A stretch of DNA of 64,000 nt, taken from contig CAVTGO010000008.1 of assembly GCA_963734275.1 (NCBI GenBank), forward strand, positions 32,718 to 96,717, given 5' to 3'. The stretch is from an uncultured Actinomycetes bacterium (GTDB lineage Bacteria; Actinomycetota; UBA4738; HRBIN12). The position numbers and the translations under genes are program-made. The notes below the pieces were generated by a model. That model was not told the origin of the DNA and searched no databases. It saw only the letters and a program-made list of their open reading frames with translations. Each line of letters starts with the position of its first letter. Position 1 is the stretch's first letter. Shown here piece after piece: positions 7,661 through 64,000 of the stretch.

Positions 7661-9547
7661 ATGCGTTCCCGAGGTCTGCTCGCCCTGTTCGCCGCGGCCG
7701 GAGGCTTCGCCGCCTTCGTCATCGCCTTCACCGGAAGCCTCTCGGTGTCGCTGGTCGCCGGCCTCATCGTGCTCGTGACGGCCCTCGTGCTGATCCGCGA
7801 TCAGATCCCCGGAGGGGACCCGCCCGACCCATCGCGGCGGCGGCTCCTGCTCGGCGCCCTCGGCGGCCTCGGGCTCGCCCTCGTCGCCGGAGGGTCGGCC
7901 CTCGGCGCCGCGCTGCGGCGCCTCTCCCGTCCGGATCCACGGCCCGTCCTGGAAGCGAGCGCGCGCGACGTCGGCGCCGAGTATCTCCAGCTGGTAACCC
8001 GCGCCTACCACCCCGAGCGCTCGGGCGACCTCCAGCTCCTCGTGACGCCGTACTCGACCTCCAATTACAAGCAGGAGTCCGTGGACCTGGTCCCGAACGA
8101 TCCGCGGACGAGCCACGCGGTCGTGTGGATGTACGGCGAGCGCGTCCCGATCGTCGTGTGGGCCCCCGGCTCGGTGGAGCCGGCCACGTTCGACGAGCGG
8201 GTGACGCTCGCCGACGTCGCGCCGACGATCGCGAAGCTGTCCGGCTTCGACGAGTTCGAGGCCGCGGACGGCATCCCGCTCCCGGGGATCCCGGCGGTCA
8301 CGCCACCCGCGCCCCCGCGCGCGATCGTGGCCTTCGTGATCGACGGCGGGGGATGGAACGTGCTGCGGCGCTGGCCCGACGCGTGGCCCAACCTGAAGCG
8401 ACTGATGGGCGAGGGTGCGACCTACCGCAACGCGATCGTGGGCTCCTTCCCCGCCGTCACGGCCTCGTCCCACGCGACGATCGGCACGGGCGCGTTCCCT
8501 CGGACGCACGGGATCACCGGTCACAACGTCCGTCGGGGGGGCAGACCGGTCAAGGCCTGGGGCGAGCCCGGGAGCGTCGACCCGTCCTTCCTGCTCGAGC
8601 CCACGCTCGCGGACCGCTGGGTCGAGCACACCGAGGGACGCGCGTGGGTGGGCGAGATCGGCTACCAGGTCTGGCACCTCGGGCTCCTCGGCCGCGGCGG
8701 TCGCCCGAACGGCGGGCTCCCCGTCGCCGTGTACTGGGACGAGTCCGGCGGGACGGGCTGGCAGCCCCACAACCCCGAGCTCTACCGGCTGCCGCGGAGC
8801 GTCCCCAGCCTCGAGCGCCTCGACGAGCTCAGCGTGGGCTACACGCCGCCCGCACCGTCCCCGTACGACCCGACCGGGAAGAAGGCGATGTGCTGCTTCC
8901 CGCCGGTGGTGCGCTACCAGGGCGAGCTGATCGAGGCGACGCTGGATTCCGAGCCGTTCGGCGACGACGAGGTCCCCGACCTGCTGTTCATCAACTTCAA
9001 GGCGCCCGACTACTCGGGTCACGTCTACAACATGGACGATCCGCGCCAAGCCGAGGTCCTGGGCGCCGTGGACGACGAGGTCGGACGTCTGGCCGCGAAC
9101 CTGCTCGAGCGCTTCGGCGAGGGACGGTTCGCGATGATCGTGACGGCTGACCACGGCCAGTGCCCGCCGATCGACGCCAGCGGCGGCGTGCGCATCGACC
9201 CGATCCAGCTCCAGGAGGACCTCGAGTCCGAGTTCGGCCAGAGCGCGTTCGGCCTGATCGAGAACGTCGCGCCCTCGGAGGTCTACCTCGACCCGCGGGC
9301 GCTCGCCGACGTCGGAGCCACGGCCGAGGACGTCGCGGCGTTCCTGGCCGGCTACCGCTACGGCGAGAACATCGGCCCCTACGTCCCGCAGGCCGCGGTG
9401 AACATCGACCGGCTCGACGCGAAGACCTTCGCCGCGGTCCTTCCCACCTCGTTCATCGCCGACCTGGCCTCCAAGGACCTCTCAGCGTTCGGCGAGACCC
9501 GGTACCCGGAGGCCGACCCCGACGGGATCCCGCCGATCACCTGGTAG
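7661..9547 (+). CDS. Alkaline-phosphatase superfamily protein (type I phosphodiesterase/nucleotide pyrophosphatase-like), membrane anchored
   Basis: 628 aa. Two N-terminal hydrophobic helices are followed by SRRRLLLGALGG. The core carries FPAVTASSHATIGTG and TADHG, which resemble AP-superfamily metal/nucleophile motifs. Confidence 0.65.
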   Translation: MRSRGLLALFAAAGGFAAFVIAFTGSLSVSLVAGLIVLVTALVLIRDQIPGGDPPDPSRRRLLLGALGGLGLALVAGGSALGAALRRLSRPDPRPVLEASARDVGAEYLQLVTRAYHPERSGDLQLLVTPYSTSNYKQESVDLVPNDPRTSHAVVWMYGERVPIVVWAPGSVEPATFDERVTLADVAPTIAKLSGFDEFEAADGIPLPGIPAVTPPAPPRAIVAFVIDGGGWNVLRRWPDAWPNLKRLMGEGATYRNAIVGSFPAVTASSHATIGTGAFPRTHGITGHNVRRGGRPVKAWGEPGSVDPSFLLEPTLADRWVEHTEGRAWVGEIGYQVWHLGLLGRGGRPNGGLPVAVYWDESGGTGWQPHNPELYRLPRSVPSLERLDELSVGYTPPAPSPYDPTGKKAMCCFPPVVRYQGELIEATLDSEPFGDDEVPDLLFINFKAPDYSGHVYNMDDPRQAEVLGAVDDEVGRLAANLLERFGEGRFAMIVTADHGQCPPIDASGGVRIDPIQLQEDLESEFGQSAFGLIENVAPSEVYLDPRALADVGATAEDVAAFLAGYRYGENIGPYVPQAAVNIDRLDAKTFAAVLPTSFIADLASKDLSAFGETRYPEADPDGIPPITW

Positions 9548-14674: not shown

Positions 14675-14779
14675 GTCGACAGATGGTACTCGCCAGGAAG
14701 GCGTCGAGCCTCGCACATCGGACCTTCATCGCGCTGATCGCTGACTCGGTCAAGTCGGCGCTCAGTCGCGCGAGAGATG

Positions 14780-15129
14780 TGGAGGTGGGGGGATTCGAAC
14801 CCCCGTCCCAGGACGACCGACCAGGGCTTCTCCGGGCGCAGCCGGTGGGTAGATCTCGCCTCGAGGCTCCCACCGGCGGAGGACCTCTCGGCCAGCCCGG
14901 GTGCGATGTCCGGCGGCGGCCCCCGGACGGAACCGCCTCCGTAAGCCTGCTCACGACGCCCGACCCCGGGGAGCAGGCACCCCCGGGCGGACGGCTACCT
15001 AGCTAACTAGGCAGCGAGCGCGTATTCAGTATCGGCGCTTGTGTTGTCCCGGCTTTTAACGAGGCATCCGGGGACCTCGGCCCGCTTCCCCTGGACGGGA
15101 TCCGCCCAGGTCGAAGCCAGTACACCCCC
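14780..15129 (-). ncRNA. ssrA: tmRNA (transfer-messenger RNA)
   Basis: The 5' end GGGGGUGUACUGGCUUCGAC pairs with the 3' end CACCUCC-A, including a G3:U pair, and a GGUUCGAAUCCCCCC T-arm is present. The tag ORF at 15048-15007 reads GAC AAC ACA AGC GCC GAU ACU GAA UAC GCG CUC GCU GCC UAG, giving (A)DNTSADTEYALAA*. smpB lies 0.7 kb away. The 3' CCA is not fully encoded. Confidence 0.9.
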
Positions 15130-24917: not shown

Positions 24918-27589
<2,672 letters not shown>

Positions 27590-30109: not shown

Positions 30110-30378
30110 CCCGCCTCCGATCGTCGCTCCGGAGCTCCATCCTGGCGCCCCGGACCACCACCTCGCTCGCGCCTCGAGCGGAAGAAGGGGGCCCGTGTCC
30201 GGCTGACCTGGTCTTTGACCCCACACCCGCCTGCGGGGGTGATCGCCGCCCGCGAGCGGCTTCGCACCCTCTCCCGCCGAGGTCACCCTCTCCGGGGCAG
30301 GACTGACATCTAAACCGCGCCATGCTCACCGACCAAGGGTCGGCTTACGTGGGTCGCTTCGCCCGCGGCTGGCATCGA

Positions 30379-31137
30379 CTACCGAGGAGCGACTCCCCGG
30401 GCAACCACAGACCCGGACACGGGCCCGGCGTCGAGTATAGGACCGCGGCCAGGCCGGTTGAGCGCGCGGGCGGCCGTGAGGAGGGAGACCTCGGCGGCTC
30501 CGGCGGCGAGCAGGACCTCGGCGCACGCTGCGGCGGTCGACCCGGTGGTCAGGACGTCGTCGACGAGGAGCACCCGGCCCGCAGGGCGCCCGGCCGGAGC
30601 GAATACGCCCCGCATCGCCTCTCGTCTCGCCTGGGCGCCGCGCCGGGCTTGCGACCCCGCGTCCGTCGCGCGCCGGAGCAGGGAGGCCGTCGGCAGCCCG
30701 AGGCGCGGCGCCACCGCGAGCGCCAGGACCCGCGCCTGGTCGTACCCGCGTTCGGCCAGGCGGCGGCGAGAGAGCGGCACCCACGTCACGACGTCCGTCC
30801 TGACGTCCGGCCCACCGGCCGCGTCAGCCCCCCACGCCTCCGACATCGCGGCGGCCAAGGCTTGGGCGACCGGCCGCCACCCCGCGAACTTCAACCGGTG
30901 GACGGAGCGACGGATCGGACCGTCGAACAGGAACGGCGCCCGCGAGCGGGTGATCGACGGCGGCGGACAGTCGCGGCACGACCCGACAGGAGGGGTGGCC
31001 GGCGCGCCGCACCGGTGGCACCACGGCGGCGCGAGCACGGACAGGAGCGCCCGGCAGCGATCGCAGAAGGGCCAGGGTCCCGCGCCGCACCCGGCGCAGC
31101 GCTTCGGGAACAGCGCCTCCACGAACGGGCCGAGCAC
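30379..31137 (-). CDS. ComF-family phosphoribosyltransferase-domain protein
   Basis: 252 aa with N-terminal Cys pairs (CAGCG...CDRC, CHRCG...CRDC) and the PRTase motif VLLVDDVLTTGST. Confidence 0.8.
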   Translation of the reverse strand: MLGPFVEALFPKRCAGCGAGPWPFCDRCRALLSVLAPPWCHRCGAPATPPVGSCRDCPPPSITRSRAPFLFDGPIRRSVHRLKFAGWRPVAQALAAAMSEAWGADAAGGPDVRTDVVTWVPLSRRRLAERGYDQARVLALAVAPRLGLPTASLLRRATDAGSQARRGAQARREAMRGVFAPAGRPAGRVLLVDDVLTTGSTAAACAEVLLAAGAAEVSLLTAARALNRPGRGPILDAGPVSGSVVARGVAPR

Positions 31138-43427: not shown

Positions 43428-45947
43428 TCAGTCGTTGATCGCCGCGACGAGTGGGGCCGGACGCGTTTCGCCGGTGCTCTCGGAACCGTTGCCCTGCACC
43501 CGTCCGTACGTTGTGGTGCGTTGAGCCGGCGTGCGCTCGATCGAACGGATCGCATCGTCGAACGCGCGCGGCTCCATGCGGATCCCCCACTCGGCGCCGG
43601 CCATGCGGCTGATCGTTTCCTCCATCAAGGTGCCGCCGAAATCGTTCGCTCCGCCGTTCAGGATGGTGAGAGACGCGTCAACTCCCATCTTCACCCACGA
43701 CACCTGAACGTTGTGGATAACTCCGTCGAGCAGGATGCGCGCGACCGCGTGCATCCGCCGGTCCTCATCGCCGGTGGCCCCGGCGCGAGCCTTACCGGCG
43801 AGATAGATCGGCGCGTTCTGGTGCACGAAGGAGAGCGGAACGAACTCGGTGAACCCACCCGTATCACGTTGGATATCCGCGATGCGCCGGATGTGGAAAA
43901 CCCAGTGCGGAGGCGCATCGACGTGCCCGTACATGATCGTCGAAGAGCTCCGTAAGCCCAGGTCGTGGGCCGTACGGACGATCTCCTCCCACGTGTCCGC
44001 CGGGAGCTTGCCCTTCGTGAGGACCCACCGTACGTCGTCGTCGAGGATCTCGGCGGCGGTGCCGGGGATCGTTCCGAGGCCGTGCGCCTTGCACTCGGAG
44101 AGGAACTCGCGGAACGAGATCCCGAGTCGCGTGGCCCCGTTCAAGATCTCCATGGGGCTGAACGCGTGGATGTGGATATCGGGGGTGACGGCCTTCACGG
44201 CATCGAGCAGGTCGAAGTAGAACGTGCCCGGCAGGTCGGGATGGATGCCGCCCTGCATGCACACCTCGGTGGCTCCCCACGCCTCGGCCTCTCGCGCGCG
44301 CTCGGCGACCTCACCCAGCGTGAGCGTGTACGACTCGGGATCGATCTCTCGCTGCGCGAAGGCGCAGAACCGGCATCCCACGTAGCACACGTTGGTGAAG
44401 TTGATGTTGCGGTTGACCACGTAGGTGATCTCGTCGCCGACCGCCTCGCGGCGAAGGTCGTCGGCGACCTCGCAGAGCGCCTCGAGCTCCGGACCCTCGG
44501 CGCGGAAGAGCGCCAGGGCATCGGCGTCCGAAAGCGGGCGATGGCGAGCGGCCTTGTGGAGAGCCGAGCGGATCTCGGCGTCCAGGCGCTCCTGCTCGAC
44601 GCGTTCGGCATGCCAGGCGCGGGTCGCGGCGGGCAGGTCGGTCTCGCCGTAGACCACCTCGGCGTCGTCGCGGAGCCGGGGTCCCTTCGCGAACGTGAGC
44701 TCGGTCGACCGGGGCTTCCACGCGACCTCGGGATCCTGCCAGGGGACGGGCTCGGGCACGGCGCCGGGGCGCGCCCGTCCGTCCTCGGCGACCAGGGCGG
44801 CCACCGGCGCCCGCATCCGAGCGGCGAGGAACGGGTCCGGCCGAAGGGCGAACTCCGGGTACACGGTGAGGCGCTCGCGGAGCTCCAGGCCGCGCTCGGC
44901 GGTCCGGGCCGCGAGCTCCTCGATCGCCGGCCACGGCTTCTCGGGGTTCACGTGGTCCGGCGTGAGCGGCGAGACCCCGCCCCAGTCGTCGATCCCCGCC
45001 TCGAGCAGCCGGAGCTGCTGAGCGGGGTCCGACAGGTTCGGCGGGGCCTGGAGGTGCATCCTCGGGCCAAGCACGACGCGGGCCGTCGCAACGACGGCGA
45101 GGAACTCCTCGGGTCCGGGCGGCGGGGCCGCGTGCATCGCGGTCCCATGCTTCGGGACGAAGTTCTGGACGATCACCTCCTGCACGTGGCGGTACCGGCG
45201 GTGGAGGTCCCGGATCGCGAACAGCGACTCGGCGCGCTCGGCGAGCGTCTCCCCGATCCCGACGAGGATCCCGGTGGTGAACGGGATCGCGTGGCGCCCG
45301 GCGTCCTCGATCGTCCGCAGTCGAAGTGCCGGCGCCTTGTCCGGCGAGCCGAAGTGCGGCCCGCTACGCTCCGACAGCCGCGGCGACGACGTCTCGAGCA
45401 TCAGCCCCATCGACGCGGCGACGTGCTTGAGCCGTGCGAGCTGCTCATAGGACATCACGCCCGGGTTGAGGTGCGGCAGCAGCCCGGTCTCCTCGATCAC
45501 CTTGATCGCGACGGCGCGGACGTACTCGAGCGTCGAGCGATATCCGCGCTCGGCGAGCCACGCGCGGGCCTCCGGGTACCGCTCCTCGGGCTTGTCGCCG
45601 AGCGTGAACAGCGCCTCCTTGCACCCGAGCCTCCGACCGGCCTCGGCGAGCACAACGACCTGCTCCGGCGTGAGGTAGGGGCTGTCCAGGCGGGCGGGTG
45701 GTTTCGCGAACGTGCAGTAGTGGCAGTGATCGAGACAGAGCATCGTGAGGGGCACGAACACCTTCCGCGAGTACGTCACGATGCGGCCGTGGCCGATCTC
45801 GCGGAGACGCGACGCGACGGCGCACAGGTGGTCGAGCTCGTCGCCCTGGGCGGCCAGCAGGCCGGTGACCTCGCCGAGCGAGAGCGCCTTCCCGGACTCG
45901 GCTCGCGCGAGCGCCCGACGCAGGGACTGGGGGGTCGGGTCCGCCAT
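43428..45947 (-). CDS. fbiC: FO synthase (bifunctional CofG/CofH radical-SAM enzyme)
   Basis: 839 aa with two radical-SAM CxxxCxxC motifs (CHYCTF, CRFCAF) and full-length FbiC similarity. Confidence 0.95.
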   Translation of the reverse strand: MADPTPQSLRRALARAESGKALSLGEVTGLLAAQGDELDHLCAVASRLREIGHGRIVTYSRKVFVPLTMLCLDHCHYCTFAKPPARLDSPYLTPEQVVVLAEAGRRLGCKEALFTLGDKPEERYPEARAWLAERGYRSTLEYVRAVAIKVIEETGLLPHLNPGVMSYEQLARLKHVAASMGLMLETSSPRLSERSGPHFGSPDKAPALRLRTIEDAGRHAIPFTTGILVGIGETLAERAESLFAIRDLHRRYRHVQEVIVQNFVPKHGTAMHAAPPPGPEEFLAVVATARVVLGPRMHLQAPPNLSDPAQQLRLLEAGIDDWGGVSPLTPDHVNPEKPWPAIEELAARTAERGLELRERLTVYPEFALRPDPFLAARMRAPVAALVAEDGRARPGAVPEPVPWQDPEVAWKPRSTELTFAKGPRLRDDAEVVYGETDLPAATRAWHAERVEQERLDAEIRSALHKAARHRPLSDADALALFRAEGPELEALCEVADDLRREAVGDEITYVVNRNINFTNVCYVGCRFCAFAQREIDPESYTLTLGEVAERAREAEAWGATEVCMQGGIHPDLPGTFYFDLLDAVKAVTPDIHIHAFSPMEILNGATRLGISFREFLSECKAHGLGTIPGTAAEILDDDVRWVLTKGKLPADTWEEIVRTAHDLGLRSSSTIMYGHVDAPPHWVFHIRRIADIQRDTGGFTEFVPLSFVHQNAPIYLAGKARAGATGDEDRRMHAVARILLDGVIHNVQVSWVKMGVDASLTILNGGANDFGGTLMEETISRMAGAEWGIRMEPRAFDDAIRSIERTPAQRTTTYGRVQGNGSESTGETRPAPLVAAIND

Positions 45948-45976
45948 GGAGCGCGAGCGTACTACGCTGCGTGGCG

Positions 45977-46918
45977 ATGAGGGTGACGGCGCTCGCGGGC
46001 GGGATCGGCGGGGGGAAGTTGCTGCGCGGGCTCGTCCGGACGGTGGCGCCCTCGGAGGTGACCGTCGTGGTCAACACCGGCGACGACATCGCGATGCACG
46101 GGCTCCACGTGTCGCCGGACCTGGACTCGGTGACGTACTGGCTCGGCGACGCGTTCGACCGCGAGCGCGGATGGGGACGGCGCGACGAGACGTTCCGCGC
46201 GACGGAGGAGCTCCGCCTCTTCGATCCGGAGATGGCGTGGTTCAACCTCGGTGACTTGGACCTCGCGACGCACCTGTTCCGCTCGAACCTGTTGCGCGAG
46301 AACCGTTCGCTCTCCGAGACGACGGCGCGCGTCGCCGCGCGGTTCGGCATCGAGGCGACGCTGCTGCCGATGAGCGACGATCCGGTCACCACCCGCCTGT
46401 CGGTGGTCGCCGACGGCGAGGAGCTCGATCTGCACTTCCAGGAGTACTGGGTGCGCCGGGGCGCCCGCGACGAGGTCAAGGCCGTCCGCTACGAGGGCGC
46501 GGCCGCGGCTCGCCCGGCGCCCGGCGTACTGGATGCCATCGCCAACGCCGACGCGGTCCTGCTCTGTCCCTCGAACCCCGTCGCCTCGATCGGGCCGATC
46601 CTCGCGGTCCCGGGGATCCGCGAGGAGCTCGCGGCGCGGCGCGCCGACACCGTGGGGATCAGCGGCATCGTCGGCGGAGCGCCACTCGCCGGGATGGCCG
46701 ACAAGCTCATGCCCGTGGCCGGTGCCGAGGTGACCGCCGCCGGCGCGGCCGCGTACTACGCGGGTCTCCTGGCGGCCTGGGTCGTCGACGAGGCCGACCG
46801 CGAGCTCGTGCCGCGCATCGAGGCGAGCGGGGTCCGCGTCGGCGTGACCGACTCGATCATGACCGACGACGCGAAGGCCGAGGCCCTCGCGCGGTTCGCG
46901 CTCGGCCTGCTCCCGTGA
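45977..46918 (+). CDS. fbiA: 2-phospho-L-lactate (EPPG) transferase
   Basis: MRVTALAGGIGGGKLLRGL...VVNTGDD..MHGL.VSPDLD matches the CofD family. GTG 45971 is an alternative start. Confidence 0.9.
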   Translation: MRVTALAGGIGGGKLLRGLVRTVAPSEVTVVVNTGDDIAMHGLHVSPDLDSVTYWLGDAFDRERGWGRRDETFRATEELRLFDPEMAWFNLGDLDLATHLFRSNLLRENRSLSETTARVAARFGIEATLLPMSDDPVTTRLSVVADGEELDLHFQEYWVRRGARDEVKAVRYEGAAAARPAPGVLDAIANADAVLLCPSNPVASIGPILAVPGIREELAARRADTVGISGIVGGAPLAGMADKLMPVAGAEVTAAGAAAYYAGLLAAWVVDEADRELVPRIEASGVRVGVTDSIMTDDAKAEALARFALGLLP

Positions 46919-48204
46919 ACGTCGAGGTCCTCCCGGTGCAGGGCCTGCCCGAGGTCCGTCCGGGGGACGACCTCGCCGCGCTGATGGCGCCGGCGCTCGA
47001 GCGGCTCGGCGCACGCGACGGTGACGTGATCGCCGTCACCCAGAAGGTGGTGTCGAAGGCCGAGGGGCGGGTCGTGGCCGAGGAGGGAGAGAGCCGGACC
47101 GCATGGGTCGAGCGCGAGACGCGCCGCGTCGTCGCCCGCCGGGGCGACCTCGTGATCGCCGAGACGAGCCACGGCTTCGTGTGCGCGAACGCGGGGGTGG
47201 ACGCCTCCAACGTCCAGGAGGGGTTCCTCACGCTGCTGCCCGAGGACCCTGACGCCTCGGCCGAGGCGATCCGCGAGCGTCTGCGCGAGCGCCTCGGCGC
47301 CGAGGTCGGGGTCGTCGTGACCGACACGTTCGGACGTCCGTGGCGGCGGGGCCTCGTGAACGTCGCCATCGGGTGCGCAGGCCTGCCGGCGCTCGTGGAC
47401 CTGCGAGGGACCGTCGACCACCACGGGCGCGAGCTCGAGGCCACGGTGATCGCACTCGCCGACGAGGTCGCGGCCGCGAGCGGCTTGGTGATGACCAAGG
47501 CGTCGCGCGTCCCGGCGGCCGTGGTCCGCGGCGTCGCGGCCGAGGGGCCGCCGTCACCTGCCTCGGTCCTCGTCCGCCCTCCCGAGGAGGACCTGTTCCG
47601 CGAGTCGGCGCTGCTGTCGATCTCGGCGCGGCGGACAATCCGCTCCTTCGGCCCCGGCGAGGTCCCGCGAGAGGTCGTCGAGGGGGCGGTGCGCGCGGCG
47701 TGCACGGCGCCGGCCCCGCATCACACCCGGCCGTGGACCTTCACGGCGCTGTGGTCGGCGCCGGCGAAGCGGCGGCTCCTCGGCGCGATCGCTGGGGCCT
47801 GGCGCGCGGACCTGCTCGGCGACGGGACCTCGCCGGAAACGATCGAACGCCGCCTGGCGCGCAGCGACGCGGTCCTCGGCGCGGCGCCGGTCCTGATCGT
47901 CCCGTGGGTGCGCTTCGAGGGCTCCCACCCCTACGCCGACGCCGAACGCGCCGACGCCGAGCGCGAGATGTTCCTGCTCTCAGGGGGGGCCGCGATCCAG
48001 AACCTGCTCCTCGCGCTCCACGCGCAGGGATACGCGGCCTGCTGGATCAGCTCGACGCTGTTCTGCCAGGAGGAGTCGCGCGCGGCGCTCGGGATGGGCG
48101 ACGAGTGGCATGCTCTCGGGACCGTCGCCGCCGGCCCGATGCCGACGGGGGCCGCGTCCCCGCGACCCCCGCTCGACCTCGCAAGCCATCTCCGGGCCGA
48201 ATGA
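46915..48204 (+). CDS. fbiB: Bifunctional F420 gamma-glutamyl ligase (CofE) / nitroreductase-domain protein
   Basis: 429 aa. The GTG overlaps the fbiA stop (GTGA). The N-terminal half is CofE-like (VTQKVVSKAEGR, CANAGVDASN, TDTFGRPWR) and the C-terminal half is nitroreductase-like. Confidence 0.9.
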   Translation: MNVEVLPVQGLPEVRPGDDLAALMAPALERLGARDGDVIAVTQKVVSKAEGRVVAEEGESRTAWVERETRRVVARRGDLVIAETSHGFVCANAGVDASNVQEGFLTLLPEDPDASAEAIRERLRERLGAEVGVVVTDTFGRPWRRGLVNVAIGCAGLPALVDLRGTVDHHGRELEATVIALADEVAAASGLVMTKASRVPAAVVRGVAAEGPPSPASVLVRPPEEDLFRESALLSISARRTIRSFGPGEVPREVVEGAVRAACTAPAPHHTRPWTFTALWSAPAKRRLLGAIAGAWRADLLGDGTSPETIERRLARSDAVLGAAPVLIVPWVRFEGSHPYADAERADAEREMFLLSGGAAIQNLLLALHAQGYAACWISSTLFCQEESRAALGMGDEWHALGTVAAGPMPTGAASPRPPLDLASHLRAE

Positions 48205-56077: not shown

Positions 56078-57256
56078 TCACAGGTCCTCGACCTCGACGG
56101 CCACGGGAACCTCGACGCGCTCCTGCACCTTGGGGTACTCGTGGACCTCGAACAGGTACCGCTGCGTCTGGACGTGATACAGGTGACCGGTCCGGGCGTC
56201 CGAGAGCCCGATCGTCACCCAGTACTTGCCCGCGCCGTACGGGAAGCGCTCGATCCGGAACCGCACGCGCTTCTTCTCGAACCGGCCGAGCTCGATGCCC
56301 TCGCCCGAGGTCCGCGCCTCGAGGACCGGGTGGTTCGTGGCCCCGTCGAGGACCTGGAAGTCCACGTCGAGGTCGTCCACCGGCTGGTTCTGCCGGACGT
56401 CCACCTGGATCACGAGCGCCTCGTCCCGGAGCACCGGGCCCTCGCTGGCGCCGCTCGCGCGGATCAGGTGGACCTCGACGATCTCGGCCTCGCGCGTGCC
56501 CTGCTCGGGCACGAATCCCGGGTCCGTCACGCCGAGGAGCACGTAGCGCATCTCGCGCACCACGTCGTCGGGGGCGCCGAGCGCGTGGAGGCGCCCGTGG
56601 TGCAGCATCGCCGCCCGGTCGCAGATGTCGCGCACCGTGTCGAGCGCGTGGGTGACCAGGACGATCGTGCGGCCCTCGCGCTGGAACTCGCGGACGCGCT
56701 GGATGCACTTGGCCTGGAAGGCCTCGTCGCCGACCGCGAGGACCTCGTCGATCAGCAGCACGTCGGGGTCCACGTGGACCGCGACGGCGAAGCCGAGCCG
56801 GACCAGCATCCCCGAGCTGTAGAACTTCACCTGGTTGTCCATGAAGTCTCTCGAGCTCGGCGAACGCGACGATCTGCTCGTAGGCGGCGTCGGTCTGCTT
56901 GCGCGACAGGCCGAGGAACGACGCGTTCAGGTAGACGTTCTCGCGCCCGGTCAGGTCCGGGTGGAACCCGGCGCCGAGCTCGAGCAGCGCCGCCAGGCGC
57001 CCGCGCTGCGTGATCGTGCCGCTCGTCGGCCGCAGGATCCCGGCGATGCACTTCAGCAGGGTCGTCTTGCCCGAGCCGTTGTGGCCGATCAGGCCGAACG
57101 TGGAGCCCTCGCGGACCTCGAGCGCGATGTCCTTCAGGGCCCAGAAGTCCTCGGCGCGCGCGTGCGCCGTGAGGACGCGCTCCTTCACGAGGTCGGCTTC
57201 TCGCGGAAGACGCGGAAGCGCTTCGAGAGGTCGCGGACCTCGATCGCGGCGGCCAC
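56078..57256 (-). pseudogene. Wzt/TagH-type polysaccharide-export ABC ATPase with C-terminal carbohydrate-binding-like domain; 2 frame changes
   Basis: Three frame segments. The first is VAAAIEVRDLSKRFRVFREKPTS then TGA (57185-57187). The second is VKERVL...GHNGSGKTTLLK...IVAFAELE. The third is FMDNQVKFYSSGMLVRLGFAVA...DEVLAVGDE... to 56078. Breaks lie at about 57186-57190 and about 56846-56852. Confidence 0.85.
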
Positions 57257-58169
57257 TACAGCTCCTCCGCGAAGTCGCCCGAGCGGACGAAGAAGTACCC
57301 CCACGTGAGCCGCAGGGCGACGACGGAGACGACCAGGGTCACGGCGAGGACGGCCGCCATCCACCCGAGGCTCACGTCGAACAGGACGGGCGTCGCGGCG
57401 CCGTCGGGCTGCACCAACGCCGTAGAGGGCGCGCTGGAACCCGGCGACGACGTCGGCGAGCGGGTTCAGCAGGTAGAGCGCGAACCGCGGGACCCCGAGC
57501 CACTCCCCCGTCCCGCCGTCGGCGAGCAGCTGCGCTTGGTAGCCCGCGTACACGATCGGCGTGGCCCAGAACCACACGATCAGCGCGATGTTCAGCAGGT
57601 GACCGACGTCGCGGTAGCGGACGTTGACCGCCGCGAACCACAGCGACAGCGCGACGGTCAGGACGACCAGCGTGACGAACGCCAGCGGCCACAGCGCCAG
57701 CTCGGGGACGTGGAAGCCGTAGCCCGTGACCAGCAGGAACAGGAACAGGACCACGGTCTGGAGCGCGAAGTCCACCAGCGCCACGCCGACGGCCGACAGC
57801 GGCAGGATCTCGCGCGGGAACGCGACCTTCTTCACGAGGTTCGCGTTGTCCAGGACCGAGCGCGCCCCGCTGGTCATCGAGGCGCTGAACAGGTTCCACG
57901 CCAACAGCCCCGAGAGCAGGTACACGGGGAAGTCGGGGATGCCCGCGCCGAGCACCTTGGACGACGAACGTGAAGACCGCCAGGTAGACGAGCGGGTTCA
58001 GGAGCGACCAGACGGCGCCCAGGATCGAGGCCGCGTACTTCACCTTCAGCTCCTTGCGGATGAGGTTCAGCAGGATCTCGCGGTGCTCGGCGAGGACGCG
58101 CAGGCGCTCGCCGACCCGGAAGTGCGGCGGCTCGGAGGTGCGCTCGACGGTCTGGAGGGTCGCGGTCAT
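57256..58169 (-). pseudogene. ABC-2 type polysaccharide-export permease (Wzm/TagG-like); at least 2 frame changes
   Basis: Segments are MTATLQ...LIRKELKVKYAASILGAVWSLLNPLVYLAVFTFVV | VLGAGIPDFPVYLLSGLLAWNLF...FQRALYG | ALVQPDGAATPVLFDVSLGWMAAV...SGDFAEEL*. Breaks lie at about 57952-57966 and about 57405-57430. The span is 914 nt, not a multiple of 3. Confidence 0.85.
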
Positions 58170-58227
58170 CGCAGGTCGGCGGCGCGAACACCGCTGCGGC
58201 CGAGTGTAGCAACGGCCTTGCTGGCTC

Positions 58228-59562
58228 CTATGGAGAAGGCGTGAATTCGTCCAGGGCGCGGGCGTAGGAGAGGCCGTAGCCCTCGCGCAGGTGCTCCTCG
58301 GTGACGCCGAGGTCGACCAGCGCGCCGCCCCAGCGCGCGAGCGCCCGACGCGTCGGGATCGCGAAGCAGCGCGAGCGTCCCGTCGATCGCCTCCGCGTAC
58401 CTCCGCGCGGTGGCCTCGGAGCTCGCGAGCTCCGCCATGTGCGCGGCCGCGGCGCCGCCGATCCGTTGCGCGGAGCTCCGGGTCGTCGATCAGCCGCCGC
58501 AGCGTCGCCGCGAGCTCCTCGGCGTCGAGCCGGCCCGGGCGCGACGTGCACCACCCGGTCCTCCGGCACGTCGAGGTAGGTCCCCGTGCCGCTGACGACC
58601 GTCGTCACGCCGACCTGCATCGCGCGCGCGAGCGAGCCGCTCACCTCGCCGCGGTGCGGGAACCGCAGGTCCAGCGACGACGTCGGCCGCGCCCAGCCAG
58701 GCCAGGAAGTCCTCGTCGGACACGTCCGTGTGGACCGCGAGCCGGCCGCCGAGGCCGCTCGCGTGCGCCACGGCGTCGACGTCGTAGCCCTCGATCCGCC
58801 GGCCGACCAGGACGACGTGGACGTCCTCCGGGAGCCGCGCCGCCGCGGCCAGCACGACGTCGATCAGCTTCGCCTCGTTCAGGTCGCCGAACACGCCCAC
58901 GCAGCGTCCGCATCCCCATCGCGTCGAGCGGGGCGCGCACGACCGCCCGTCGCCCGTGCGCCCGCCGCAGGGCCTCGGCGGACTCGACCACCGGGTGCGG
59001 CGCCACGTAGACCGGCGTCCGGCAGCCGAACGCGCGCAGGTACCGCTCGACGAACGGCGAGTGGGCCACGATGCCCCGCGCTCGCCGCGCGGCGTGCGCG
59101 ACGAACGGGACGCGCAGCGGCTCGTTGCGGACGGCGTCCGGGAACGACTCGAGCCTCGGCGCGTTCGCGTGCCCCTCGCGCATCGCCTGGTGCCCGAGCG
59201 GGTCGCCCGCCGCGATCATCCCGCGCACGAAGTCGTCCAGCGCCAGGTCGTGGATCACCACGAGCCCCGGCGTCTGGATCGCGTGGCGGTAGACGTCGCG
59301 GTGGAACTCGACGTTGTTGCCCAGGTGGTAGACGCCCATCGTGTGCCACGGGATCGTGCCCTCGTGCTTCGGCTGCATCGGCCAGATCGGCTCGAACGGC
59401 GTGCCGGTACCCGATGCGCTGCAAGCCGTCCAGGACCGCCTGCGAGTAGCTCGCGATCCCGGTCTTCGCCGGCGGCATCGGCGAGAGCCACGCGATCCGC
59501 GGGTCCATCTTGTAGTCCCAGCGGATCAGGCGGCGCGCGGCGCCGACGACCGGGTTGCCCAT
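58228..59562 (-). pseudogene. GT4-family glycosyltransferase; at least 6 frame changes
   Basis: GT4-like sequence continues across all three frames: MGNPVV...LDGLQRIGY | PFEPIWPMQPKHEG...VYHLGNN...IVAHSPF | GVFGDLNEAKLIDVVL...VLVGR | DLRFPHRGEVSGSLARAMQVGVTTVVS | RLDAEELAATLRRLIDDPELR | AQRIGGAAAAHMAEL... | RALARWGG...DEFTPSP*. Breaks lie at about 59400, 58905, 58676, 58537, 58470 and 58357. Confidence 0.8.
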
Positions 59563-59564
59563 CG

Positions 59565-60971
59565 CTACTCCGTCAGCCGGGCGACGACGTCCGGCCAGCC
59601 CGGCACGCGCTCGCGCAGCACGCGCGTTGCCCGCCTCGCCCATCGCCTTGGCCTTCGGCCGGTTGGAGAACAGGACGTCGAACGCGTGCGCGATCGCCTG
59701 CGGCTCGGGCGGCGTGACGAACCCGGTCTCGCCGTCCGTCACGAACTCCAGCGGCCCGCCGGCGTCGGTCGAGCGTGACCACCGGCCGGTGCGCCGCGAA
59801 CCCCTCGAGCGTCACGTAGCCGTAGTCCTCGTCGAACGGCCCGTAGTAGACGCCGAGCGCCGAGCAGGTACAGCTCGTGCAGCTGCTCGTCGGAGACGCG
59901 GCCCGCGAGCTCGGATCTTGCGCTCGAGGCCGAGCTCCGCGATCCGCGCTCGGATGGCCGGCTCGTCGGGCCCGCCGCCGACCAGGACCAGCCGCACGTC
60001 GGTCTTCGTGTGCCGCATCGCCTCGACGACGAGCGGCTGGCGCTTCAGCGCCTCGAGGCGGCTCGGGAACACGATCGCAGTCGCCGTACGGGCCGGGCTC
60101 CATCGGCAGGAGCGCCTCGACGATCGGGCTCGGGTGGTAGAGCACCTCGGAGCTCAGCCGGTTCGAGTTCCAGAGCCGGTCCTGCACGTTGCGCGAGTTC
60201 GTGAAGATCCGCTTGGCCTCGCCGAGCGCGACCCGGTCGCTCTGCTGCACCATGTCGCGCACGGCCGGCCCCTCGACCTGCTTCGACAGGTCGGCGAACT
60301 CCGGGTGGTCCCACAGCTCGTACGCGCTGCGGTGCTGGTGGATCAGCCAGACGACCTTGCGCTCGTGCGGCACGAGGTACGCCGGGAACTTCAGCGCGAT
60401 CACCATGTCGATCGGCAGGCCGTTGGACTCGGACAGGTCGAGCGCGCGCCAGACCGCCATCTGATGGACCAGCTCGGTCGCCGGGTACCACTTGCCCGCG
60501 ACGACGACCTCCTCGGCCTCGTGCCCCGCCACCTTCAGCGCGCGGACGAGCGCCTCGGTGTGCGTCTCGGCGCCGCCGGCGCACGAACGGCGTCTGCGGG
60601 TGGACGACCGCGATCCTCACTCGCCCGCGCTCCTGCCTCAGGCGCGCCACCTCGGCCTCGAGCACCGCCACCCGGTCCGCGAGCGCCGCGTTCAGCTCAC
60701 CCAGGTCGCCCAGGAGCCGGTCGTAGCGCCACGAGATCGGCCGGAAGAGGCGGAAGAGGCGGAACTTCAGCCGCCGCCGCCACTTGGAACGGCTCGCCAG
60801 GTTGGGCTCGCCGCGCGGGATGAGCGCCTTCTCGTCGTCGCGCATGAGCATCGCGAAGTCGTGGAGCGCGTCGCGAACCTCGGCGGTGTCCATGCGCGAG
60901 CGCGGCGTGGCCTCCTCGGCCCAGTAGAGCTCGCGCTCGAGGGCGCCCCGCGCATCGTTCTCGCTGGTCAT
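59565..60971 (-). pseudogene. Coiled-coil N-terminal domain fused to a GT4-family glycosyltransferase; at least 6 frame changes
   Basis: Starts at ATG 60971. About 115 aa of helical/coiled-coil sequence (…LGELNAALADRVAVLEAEVARLRQERG) precede VRIAVVHPQTPFV | AGGAETHTEALVRALKVAGHE... | FPSRLEALKRQPLVVEAM..VLVGGGPDE | ELAGRVSDEQLHELY | ALGVYYGPFDEDYGYVTLEGFA | DAGGPLEFVTDGETGFV... | VLRERVPGWPDVVARLTE*. Breaks lie at about 60578, 60075, 59915, 59868, 59768 and 59620. Confidence 0.8.
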
Positions 60972-61072
60972 CGGGGGTGAGGGTAGCACCGGGGTCGCCG
61001 GCGCTCGCGGTTTCTCAACCACATCAGCACACGTCGGAAGCGTCCCATGCCCAGCTAGGCGATACTCCGGCC

Positions 61073-61994
61073 GTGCGCCCTGTTGACGAGGACGATGAGC
61101 TCCGCGCGGCGGCGTTCGCCTTCCTGACTGAACTGGCCGCGCGAACGGGCGGGGTCGCAACACGCCGGGACCTACGTCAGTTCGCCTTCCGGGGAGTGCG
61201 CACGTCCTTGGAACAGCACATGCGCGGGATTCGTGTGGTCGAGGGTCATCCGGCCGCACTGACGATCCTCACATCCTTTGCGGAGCACCCGGAGGAGCGG
61301 CCATACGAGGACGACATCGGGCCGGACAACTATCCACGCTACAAATGGCAAGGGAGTGACCCCTTAGCATCGGACAACGTTGCGCTGCGAACAGCCATGC
61401 AGCAGCAGAAGCCTGTGGCCTGGTTCCGCGGCGTTGCACCCGGTCTCTATGAGGTAGTACACCCAGTCTGGATCGTCGGCGAAGAAGTCTGACCAACAGC
61501 AGGTCGTGTTGGCTCTCGACGAAGTGACGCGGTCGGCCTGGCAGATGGACGTTCTCTTCAGCCCGATGGACGAAGTCCGCCGGCGTGAGTACGCCATGGC
61601 CGTGGTCCGCCGCCGCCTCCACCAACCGGACTTCCGGCGCAGGGTCCTAACCGCCTACGGACGCCAGTGTGCGATCTGCAGGCTACGGCACACTGAACTT
61701 CTCGACGCTGCACATATCAAAGAGGACGCACAGGGTGGAGAGCCCGTGGTGCCAAACGGGATCGCAATGTGCGCCATTCATCACCGCGCGTTCGACGCAC
61801 TCGTGGTCGGCGTCACGCCAGGGTACGCAGTCGAGGTTCGCAAGGACGTTCTGGAGGAGCGCGACGGCCCGACGCTGCAGCATGCGCTACAGGGAATCCA
61901 TGGAACATCGCTCATCTTGCCGAAGCAGGCCTCTCAAATGCCCAATTCTGAACTCCTCGAAGAGCGTTATGAGAGATTCCGGGAAGCTGGGTAG
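61073..61994 (+). pseudogene. Putative modification-dependent (type IV-like) restriction endonuclease: SRA/YDG-like N-domain + HNH (HNH_2-type) nuclease, split by a frameshift
   Basis: The N-terminal part (GTG 61073 to stop 61492) contains PYEDDIGPDNYPRYKWQGSDP...DNVALRTAM...PVAW. The C-terminal part (frame of 61506..61994) contains RLHQPDFRRRVLTAYGRQCAICRL...LLDAAHI...NGIAMCAIHHRAFD. The second frame is open back to about 61461, so one indel near 61480-61490 splits a single gene. The SRA-like assignment is from memory of the motif pattern. Confidence 0.6.
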
Positions 61995-62037
61995 ATGCTG
62001 ATCTGACGATCTGATCCTGGATCGCTACGGTTCGCGC

Positions 62038-62855
62038 ATGTCCGAATTGCAGCCGCCTCATCAGGCGCCGCAGCGACTCCGCGCTGACGGTGAGTGGTGG
62101 GTTCTCATGGTCACCGACGGCATGACAATTGAGTATCCGCCCGAGCTCTATCGCGATCGCGAACACGCTGAGCTCGAAGGCGAACGATGGGCACACCTCC
62201 TGTCGGCCATATCCGGCCAGCCCGTCGAAAGGCCTTTCGAGGGGCGGTGGGAGATTGGCGACAGGTGGGTCCGGCTTGTGTGCTCGTTCCTTCCCGAGGA
62301 GGGGTCCGAGATCTGGGTCGGCACCCACTGGGGCCGAGATGGTTCACCCGAGCCGGAGGCAGCGCTCTTCGCAGATGCAGCCGAGGCGAGAACGTGGGCG
62401 CTGAGCCACGCACCGGCGCCATCCCGTTCGAAACTCACGAGACTCCTTGGACTGTTGTCGTCGGCCACCGAGTTCGAGGCGGCGAGGAGGAATCCGAGGT
62501 CCATCGCGGCAAGGTCGTCGCCGACCTCATGGCCCCATCTATCGACGGGTCCTCGACGACGGTGTACGGGTTCGAGGTGAGTGAGGGCCTCATCCCACAG
62601 GGCCCTAACCTGTTCGCAAGCCGAGAGGTCCGCAACGAGACTCTCCGGCGACTGCTGGAGGCCGAGATGACCCATCGGGATTGGCGAGACCTCGTCTCGG
62701 CCACCGCAGCTGGAAACTATGTCGAGAACGACCTGCCATCGAACTGGCAAGAAATGTGGACTGACAGTGTGGGTCTGGAGTGGTTACTCGGCTTCAACTT
62801 CGTCGGCGACGGGGATGACTTTGAGATCCGCTGCTTCGAAACGGCAATCGGCTAG
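62038..62855 (+). CDS. Hypothetical protein(s): either one gene with a frameshift near 62405-62425, or two overlapping genes (62038..62580 and 62529..62855)
   Basis: Two track ORFs in different frames both have protein-like stretches. No family recognised. GC is about 60%. Confidence 0.3.
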
Positions 62856-63032
62856 GCGGGTGAGCCGACAGGCGTGACCTACCGGTGGGTTGAATTCACC
62901 AGGGGCTTCGGTTGAGGACTTGATCCGGATCACCGGCAACGTGATCATGCCCTCGTGCCGACTTCATACCCTCGGTGGCGCCACTACCCGCTTTGGAGAA
63001 CCCCCGGACCCTGGGTAGCCGAGATTGTGGGC

Positions 63033-63254
63033 ATGGTGTCTGCAGCGGAAACGGGCATCTCCTCGTCGAGCGCACATCTTGAGAGCAACAAGGTCCTTGC
63101 GCATCTGGGTCCGGGATTGGAAGGGATCGGATTCGAAGTAGAGAAACGCGGAACCAAACTCGCCCGTCCGGTCCTCTTTGGCGATGAGGGAACTGTCTCG
63201 AAGTCCTTCAACGTGGACGCATTCAGGCTGGGAGATGGCGTGGCTCTGGAGATT
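63033..63254 (+). other. 5' fragment of a possible PD-(D/E)xK restriction-endonuclease-fold gene, cut off at the 63254/63255 junction
   Basis: Starts at ATG 63033: MVSAAETGISSSSAHLESNKVLAHLGPGLEGIGFEVEKRGTKLARPVLFGDEGTVSKSFNVDAFRLGDGVALEI. The D...(A/V)LE(I/V) pattern resembles nuclease cores. The assignment is speculative. Confidence 0.25.
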
Positions 63255-63767
63255 GTGCGCACCGCACGAGTGCTGGTCGCTTCCTATGTCACCGTCATTC
63301 GAAATCTGCCGCTCCTGGTGATCGTCCTTTTCGCCTATTTCGCCCTGCCGCGACTTGGTTTGCGACTTGGTAAGGTCGAGAGCTTCATAGCCTCGCTCGC
63401 ACTCTATGCAGGCGCCTATCTGACGGAGGTTTTCCGCGCCGGATTGGTGGGCGTCCCTAGAGGCGTTGTTGATGCAGGACTTGCCATCGGCCTCACAAGG
63501 TCCAGGGTTGCTCTTTATGTGGTCTTGCCGATTATGCTGCGCAATTCGCTTCCCGCGCTCGGCACGACATTTATCTCCTTATTCAAGGACACTTCGCTCG
63601 CCGCAACCATTGCAATTCAGGAGCTGACGTTTGTCGCCCGCAAGATCAATGTCGAGACTTTTCGTGTGGCCGAGGCCTGGCTCGCGGCGTCGGTTCTTTA
63701 TATTGCAACTTGCCTGATTCTGGCTGCCGGCCTGCGGCGGCTCGAACGGCAGTTCCCCAAATTTTGA
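63255..63767 (+). pseudogene. Polar amino-acid ABC transporter permease (HisQ/GlnP/OccQ type), 5'-truncated
   Basis: Contains ...YVTVIRNLPLLVIVLFAYFALP...YAGAYLTEVFRAG...LPALGTTFISLFKDTSLAATIAIQELT..., including the EAA-loop region. About 50-60 N-terminal residues are missing and it has no start or RBS of its own. It is read through from the preceding fragment only by chance frame continuity. GC is about 57%. Confidence 0.8.
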
Positions 63768-63776
63768 GGCGTGCAT

Positions 63777-64000
63777 GGATGCTTTTGTTCGCGAACTGAC
63801 GATTGCCGCCGGGCCGCTGCTCGACGGCTTTACCCTCACCATTTGGATTTCCGTATTTGTGATCACCTTGGGCTCACTCGTCGGGATCCTGTTCGGTGTT
63901 CTTCTCACTTACGGTTTTCGGCCGCTGCGCTGGCTCATTCGCGGTTATGTCGATGCAATTCGCGGAACGCCGGTCCTCGTCCTGATCCTCGCTTCGTATT
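63777..64000 (+). CDS. Polar amino-acid ABC transporter permease (second permease, HisM/OccM type), partial at the window end
   Basis: The ATG at 63777 lies 9 nt after the upstream stop, with a GAGG SD. Hand translation gives MDAFVRELTIAAGPLLDGFTLTIWISVFVITLGSLVGILFGVLLTYGFRPLRWLIRGYVDAIRGTPVLVLILASY. Not in the track because there is no stop in the window. Confidence 0.8.

Follow-up and report, generated by a model that had tools for sequence, protein, structure and literature searches.

An abrupt seam between actinobacterial and alphaproteobacterial DNA that is almost certainly an assembly or concatenation join

The window, by which we mean the whole stretch of 64,000 nucleotides that was analysed, consists for the most part of a GC-rich bulk (positions 1–60,975; GC 0.715, GC3 ~0.95) that encodes SecA, LGFP/SpoIID and DUF5719 proteins together with a polysaccharide cluster of the ManC / GT2 / Wzt-Wzm / glycosyltransferase type. 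The SecA protein is 92% identical to a protein on the ENA contig 'contig_11405' and 85–88% identical to many proteins listed under the name Actinomycetota bacterium. The search with ManC recovered 80 loci from MAGs of uncultured organisms, many of which are Microflora Danica bins; all relatives above about 60% identity bear the name Actinomycetota or Actinomycetes, with Acidimicrobiia and Thermoleophilia among the weaker ones. By protein similarity the left 63 kb are part of the genome of an uncultured soil member of the Actinomycetota. The coenzyme F420 biosynthesis cluster at 43428–48204 fits an actinobacterial source of the bulk; in it cofD is accompanied by a fused FO synthase (fbiC-like, 839 aa) and by fbiB, a fusion of F420 ligase and nitroreductase. 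The window also carries a raiA RNA motif (30194–30421, minus strand; 148 bits) and a tmRNA (14777–15129, minus strand) with the tag peptide ADTEYALAA, both of which are ordinary for Actinomycetota.

At about position 60,976, in the intergenic space between two divergent genes, the bulk gives way to an island of restriction-related genes that extends to position 63,254 (Table 1). The product of its first gene matches the HNH_2 family of Pfam (E 1e-8), the HNH profile of PADLOC (E 1e-17) and the NCBIfam family PT-DNA_restrict (E 4e-22, which is below the curated cut-off), and it is related to the phosphorothioate-DNA-dependent restriction enzymes. The family match is confined to the C-terminal half of the protein, with none for the N-terminal ~170 aa. 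Homologues of 57–71% amino-acid identity are encoded in the Actinomycetota MAG loci L008 (5829–6839) and L027 (1–920), at a distance of 10 kb or less from the ManC orthologue, and the matches of this gene to plasmids are taxonomically scattered. The following gene, distributed over two overlapping reading frames, gave no family match in Pfam, NCBIfam or PADLOC, and its homologues (46–54% amino-acid identity) are found in L008, as an intact ORF of 155 aa (7723–8190), and in L009. In L008, too, the two genes lie near each other, and they may represent a conserved defence gene pair. Since their homologues occupy the same locus in L008, L009 and L027, the island belongs to the actinobacterial lineage, and the foreign DNA begins only at the seam described below. 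The 2.3 kb to the left of the seam had no DNA match in the plasmid collection.

The last gene of the island is represented by its first 100 codons only. A phmmer search with this fragment against 1.84 billion representative proteins yielded 266 matches at E<=1e-3, the best of them with 57% identity, and residues 1–100 of the query align to residues ~1–104 of proteins that are 175–185 aa long; some 75–85 C-terminal residues are thus missing. In the family D88 and E101 are invariant and E99 nearly so (a D-x10-E-x-E motif), and the window copy stops at ...ALEI, before the second Glu, which leaves the catalytic D...E-x-E motif incomplete. No sequence match to the family was obtained in Pfam, NCBIfam, PADLOC, PHROGs or the PDB (the latter searched by phmmer and with a profile), so its assignment comes from structure prediction only. 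The AlphaFold model of a full-length member (pLDDT 95.2) had as its best Foldseek match in the PDB the enzyme OkrAI (E 1.2e-4, probability 1.00, TM 0.59), followed by BstYI, BglII and BamHI. With high confidence the family is predicted to adopt the BamHI/OkrAI-like restriction-endonuclease fold with an E-x-E motif, and these 266 uncharacterised representatives may be regarded as a candidate, so far unannotated family of type II restriction enzymes. The predicted fold, the D-x10-E-x-E motif and an island shared with another restriction enzyme are what the family has in common with type II enzymes of the PD-(D/E)XK class such as BamHI, OkrAI, BstYI and BglII. It differs from them in that the identity in the structural alignments is only 11–15%, with no detectable sequence similarity, in that no methyltransferase partner is seen for it here, and in that the window copy covers only residues 1–100. 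No methyltransferase is encoded between 60.9 and 63.25 kb, and the DNA originally 3' of the gene has been lost at the seam. A weak tblastn match in Bacillus was the only one found for the fragment among plasmids, and the plasmid comparisons of the left side are no guide to its origin.

To the right of the seam lie 746 bases of a different kind. They start inside a gene for a polar amino-acid ABC permease, whose 170 residues from 63255 to the stop codon at 63765–63767 are 98% identical to residues 50–219 of several 219-aa permeases from metagenomes and 91% identical to a protein from an Aestuariivirgaceae MAG, with more distant matches in Microvirga, Mesorhizobium and Nitratireductor. At the DNA level the comparison was made with the public metagenome contig LLBZ010021474.1 of GCA_002838105.1 (L001 below), which carries the intact 219-aa permease gene, a 98% relative. 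Among plasmids these bases matched amino-acid ABC permease genes only, with 68–70% DNA identity and nearly all in Rhizobiales. On the contig of another 98% relative the natural operon, which has a 7-base spacer, runs in the order LysR, SDR, SBP, permease (219 aa), permease (220 aa), ATPase. These similarities indicate that the right 746 bases are alphaproteobacterial DNA of an Aestuariivirgaceae-like (Hyphomicrobiales) organism. With the HisM/HisQ/GlnP-type permeases (BPD_transp_1) the window copy shares the 98% identity to 219-aa members and the second permease gene next to it; unlike them, it has neither the first 49 residues nor a start codon nor the upstream solute-binding-protein gene, and it is thus not a functional gene. 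L001 itself contains a run of 238 N at 2446–2683 with a copy of the same 16-base sequence (TGTTCGCGAACTGACG) on either side; this artefact of scaffolding belongs to the public record and not to the window.

Table 1. Features at the right-hand end of the window.
Feature	Position	Strand	Evidence or remark
Frameshift-dense tail with Wzt/Wzm-type ABC transporter and glycosyltransferase genes	56100–61500	-	Intact orthologues in L019 and L014
HNH restriction-endonuclease gene, first of the 62% GC island, frameshift near 61,490	60977–61994	+	HNH_2, PT-DNA_restrict, PADLOC HNH
Island gene without assigned function, in two frames, frameshift near 62,400	62038–62855	+	Overlapping ORFs 62038–62580 and 62187–62855
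First 100 codons of a nuclease-like gene of ~175–185 aa, ending ...DAFRLGDGVALEI at the seam	62955–63254	+	phmmer family, predicted BamHI/OkrAI-like fold
Seam	63254–63256	.	Identity to L001 98.8% rightwards from 63256 and 27% leftwards over 200 bases
Permease codons 50–219 and stop, from a 219-aa polar amino-acid ABC permease (His/Glu/Gln/Arg/opine type)	63255–63767	+	BPD_transp_1, protein and DNA identity
Second permease, first 75 codons, cut by the window end	63775–64000	+	99% DNA identity to L001 2684–2898

The two kinds of DNA meet with no transition between them. A preliminary description of the window had placed an abrupt junction of two unrelated DNAs at 63254/63255, and the comparison with L001 bears this out to within one base. 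Homology to L001 begins at position 63256, and from there to 64000 the window is identical to it in 752 of 761 aligned bases (98.8%), which fall into two ungapped pieces (539/546 and 213/215 identical), while the 200 bases to the left of the seam agree with it in 27% of positions when compared in the same register, the level of random sequences. Across 63254/63255 the window reads ...GGCGTGGCTCTGGAGATT/GTGCGCACCGCA..., or in codons (63,240–63,272) GGC GTG GCT CTG GAG ATT on the left and GTG CGC ACC GCA CGA GTG on the right. The close permease relatives read ...SKLRTARVLVAS (SKL-RT-ARVLVAS), and the presence of RT-ARVLVAS in them shows that the codons for Arg and Thr to the right of the seam genuinely belong to the permease. 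The only ambiguous codon is thus the first one after the seam, which is GTG in the window, CTG in L001 and codes for Leu in the close relatives. In the family on the left the residue that follows LE(V/I) is the invariant Glu (GAR); G63255 fits this expected codon, so that this base may equally well be the last one of the left piece. The breakpoint accordingly lies at 63254/63255 or at 63255/63256, and the parental sequences share 0–1 base there.

In both genes the break falls within a domain: the permease gene is interrupted at residue 50 of 219, and the nuclease-like gene at residue 100 of ~180, a point between two conserved Glu residues. The earlier view of the left part as a gene fragment was correct, residues 1–100 matching a family of ~175–185 aa, and the point of entry into the permease, which had been put at about residue 50–60 with no start or first helices, is exactly residue 50, the first 49 residues being absent. 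The second permease gene, described as intact and normally spaced, begins with an ATG at 63775, 7 bases after the stop codon of the first. It cannot be called intact, since the window holds only 75 codons of it. The two truncated genes form a single ORF (62955–63767, plus strand; 270 aa) that runs uninterrupted through the seam and joins 100 codons from the 5' part of the nuclease-like gene to permease codons 50–219. That the fragments are in frame by position only, as had been proposed, agrees with the Pfam match to BPD_transp_1 (E 7e-15), which is confined to residues 98–265 of the fused ORF and starts at profile position 10. In our reading the 270-aa 'fusion protein' owes its open frame to an accident of position with odds of one in three, and no organism would express it.

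The consensus on the left deteriorates as the seam is approached. Frameshifts were counted by mapping the intact orthologous ORFs of related MAG loci to the window in successive frames. The Wzt gene has one shift (~56846), the ABC-2 permease gene two (~57960 and ~57410), the glycosyltransferase gene at 58.4–59.6 kb four, that at 59.6–60.6 kb at least two, and the HNH gene and the gene at 62 kb one each. The total is at least 10 in the ~5.5 kb before the seam (window positions 56100–62400), compared with about 1 in 20 kb between 15 and 37 kb, and the frameshift density is raised ~40-fold in the last ~7 kb of the left side. In the 15–37 kb region the sole shifted gene is that of SecA (24924–27583, minus strand), which is split at a run of seven C near 27166 (CACCCCCCCATCC) in the manner typical of homopolymer sequencing errors. 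A split close to the N-terminus is present in the 92%-identical secA relative on L002, too. Homopolymers as the cause hold for SecA, but most of the shifts at 57–61 kb are not located at runs of 5 or more. The abundance of shifts in the tail (at least 10 in ~5.5 kb) is what one sees where a long-read contig runs out in thin coverage, and it suggests that the actinobacterial sequence has very low coverage, or a consensus mixed from several strains, towards its end. Because of the error-rich consensus with its many frameshifts, the gene calls between 56 and 63 kb are unreliable. The right-hand 746 bases have no indels relative to L001 and contain no homopolymers of 5 or more. The contrast between an indel-rich left and an indel-free right side is nevertheless not significant as proof of two data sources, with ~1.7 indels expected on the right at the error rate of the left tail and P(0) ~0.2.

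The base composition changes along the same stretch in smaller steps than the homology does. The GC content is 0.715 in the bulk, 0.624 in the island (60976–63254), 0.602 in the last 746 bases before the seam and 0.568 on the right side. The fall from about 60% (about 72% in the bulk) to about 57% that had been reported from line counts is therefore real. Directly at the seam, the contrast in composition is weaker than had been claimed: the change in GC is slight, and GC3 is nearly the same on the two sides (0.65 on the left and 0.64 on the right). What does change is the fraction of T, which rises from 0.20 to 0.29 across the seam, and, on small counts, the use of TAT, ATT and TTT. It is the homology that proves the break; composition alone would not suffice.

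The surroundings of the seam were also searched for traces of recombination. There is no tRNA at the seam, and no integrase, transposase or relaxase domain was detected in any ORF of 60,977–63,767 with Pfam, NCBIfam or PADLOC. Near the seam no repeat exceeds chance expectation. A 13-base repeat, GAGATTGTG(G/C)GCA, occurs at 63021 and 63249 with its second copy spanning the seam, and was dismissed as fortuitous, since about 20 pairs of 9-mers such as GAGATTGTG are expected in 3.5 kb. Microhomology is absent as well, the permease relatives and the left family sharing nothing around the seam; with an overlap of 0–1 base and no sequence common to both parents, a repeat-mediated misassembly was likewise rejected. 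None of the marks of a mobile-element insertion junction (a tRNA or att site, repeats, mobility genes) is thus found here, and the far end of such an insertion would be outside the window. The same join was not encountered elsewhere. The 80 related Actinomycetota loci contain neither the permease nor the left gene nor the fused arrangement. Exact DNA patterns ending at the seam had 0 matches in GTDB genome contigs, JGI metagenome contigs and IMG/VR. The exact-protein look-up with the HNH ORF and the permease fragment returned no identical proteins on record, and a word-based search of proteins found nothing similar to the left fragment.

Compared separately, the two flanks belong to different phyla, the left one to the Actinomycetota and the right one to Aestuariivirgaceae-like Hyphomicrobiales. 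Taken together with the abrupt break in homology, the truncation of both genes, the lack of a recombination signature and the error-rich tail, this leads us to the view that the join is not biological: the seam is almost certainly an assembly or concatenation join, and we infer that concatenation or the handling of records, not a cell, produced it. We lean, with moderate confidence, towards a spacer-less boundary at which two independently assembled sequences have been placed end to end. The left piece would be a contig end, ragged and of low quality, that comes from an uncultured soil member of the Actinomycetota and stops inside a restriction-endonuclease-like gene, and its error pattern and relatives make a long-read metagenome bin the most likely source. 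The right piece would be the start of another, Aestuariivirgaceae-like contig that begins at permease codon 50, and it would either contaminate that bin or just be the record that came next. The closest relatives include assemblies with Flye-style 'contig_N' names. The Microflora Danica (MFD) MAGs were assembled with Flye/Medaka from Nanopore data only, and contamination of up to 10% was tolerated in the bins (PMC12313526); by analogy the window itself may come from data of the Nanopore/Flye type. With MAG contig boundaries and contaminants of the sort screened for by GUNC or CheckM the seam shares the unrelated taxa side by side, the truncation of both terminal genes, the abrupt homology break and the poor consensus of the tail; it differs from them in that the window shows neither a spacer of Ns nor a break between records. 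This lack of Ns or any other spacer, the small GC step (0.60 to 0.57) and the fact that a chimeric join fits the same observations speak against the boundary reading.

Such a chimera, which we regard as possible rather than probable, would have arisen within a single contig, when either a chimeric long read or an erroneous link where the assembly graph was thinly covered carried the actinobacterial end on into alphaproteobacterial sequence. The chimeric read would consist of two unrelated molecules ligated or read in tandem, and the abundant alphaproteobacterial reads would then have polished the foreign tail. The frameshift-rich last ~7 kb point to very few supporting reads on the left, at the very place where one chimeric read could pass into the assembly. 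Like ligation chimeras, the junction is free of homology; the sequence to the right of it is clean, and the relatives come from Nanopore/Flye metagenomes. Chimeric contigs of Nanopore metagenomes resemble the window in having a homology-free junction in a low-coverage region and indel errors, one of them at a homopolymer, on the low-coverage side; the difference is that the foreign part in the window reads as cleanly as a consensus with good coverage. Assembly chimeras, however, usually form at shared repeats, and here there are none; only 746 foreign bases are visible, and nothing separates a chimera from plain concatenation. Of the three origins proposed in the preliminary description, the concatenation point and the chimeric assembly or contaminant are thus both in agreement with the phyla, the cut genes and the bad tail, and nothing supports the third, a real rearrangement.

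A real junction seems to us very improbable. It would require a very recent illegitimate recombination or horizontal transfer that brought a fragment of an alphaproteobacterial ABC operon into the actinobacterial restriction island, with the destruction of both genes and with the in-frame nuclease–permease ORF as a product of end-joining. The site does lie in a variable island of low GC content, where foreign DNA accumulates, and nothing in the sequence alone forbids such an event. Against it stand the 98.8% identity of the DNA across phyla, with the native alphaproteobacterial codon usage and no amelioration, the cutting of both genes in mid-domain with no mobile-element gene, tRNA, repeat or microhomology, and the absence of the junction from the 80 related loci and from the independent sequences searched. 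We consider it exceedingly improbable that the whole stretch from ~60,976 to 64,000 is a single foreign block, alphaproteobacterial or other, that was rearranged internally at 63,254. The GC content falls from 72% to 62% and GC3 drops sharply at ~60,976, and the GC content of the island (0.62) is nearer to that of the right side (0.57) than to that of the bulk. This change, however, falls in the intergenic region between divergent genes, and the homologues of the island genes (46–71% identity) adjoin the ManC/polysaccharide locus in related Actinomycetota MAGs, while the natural context of the permease in alphaproteobacteria (LysR, SDR, SBP, permease, permease, ATPase) contains no restriction genes. 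The k-mer profile of the island, moreover, resembles that of the last 746 bases before the seam (r 0.85–0.91) and not that of the right side (r 0.62–0.74).

If the junction were real, it would provide a rare snapshot of the capture of DNA across phyla, but nothing supports that. With the seam regarded as a join of assembly or concatenation, its value is that of quality control. The last 746 bases are foreign to the organism that supplied the other 63 kb and are to be discarded, and the 270-aa fusion ORF is not to be annotated. Any inference on gene content, horizontal transfer or composition of this organism that is drawn near the end of the window would be contaminated.
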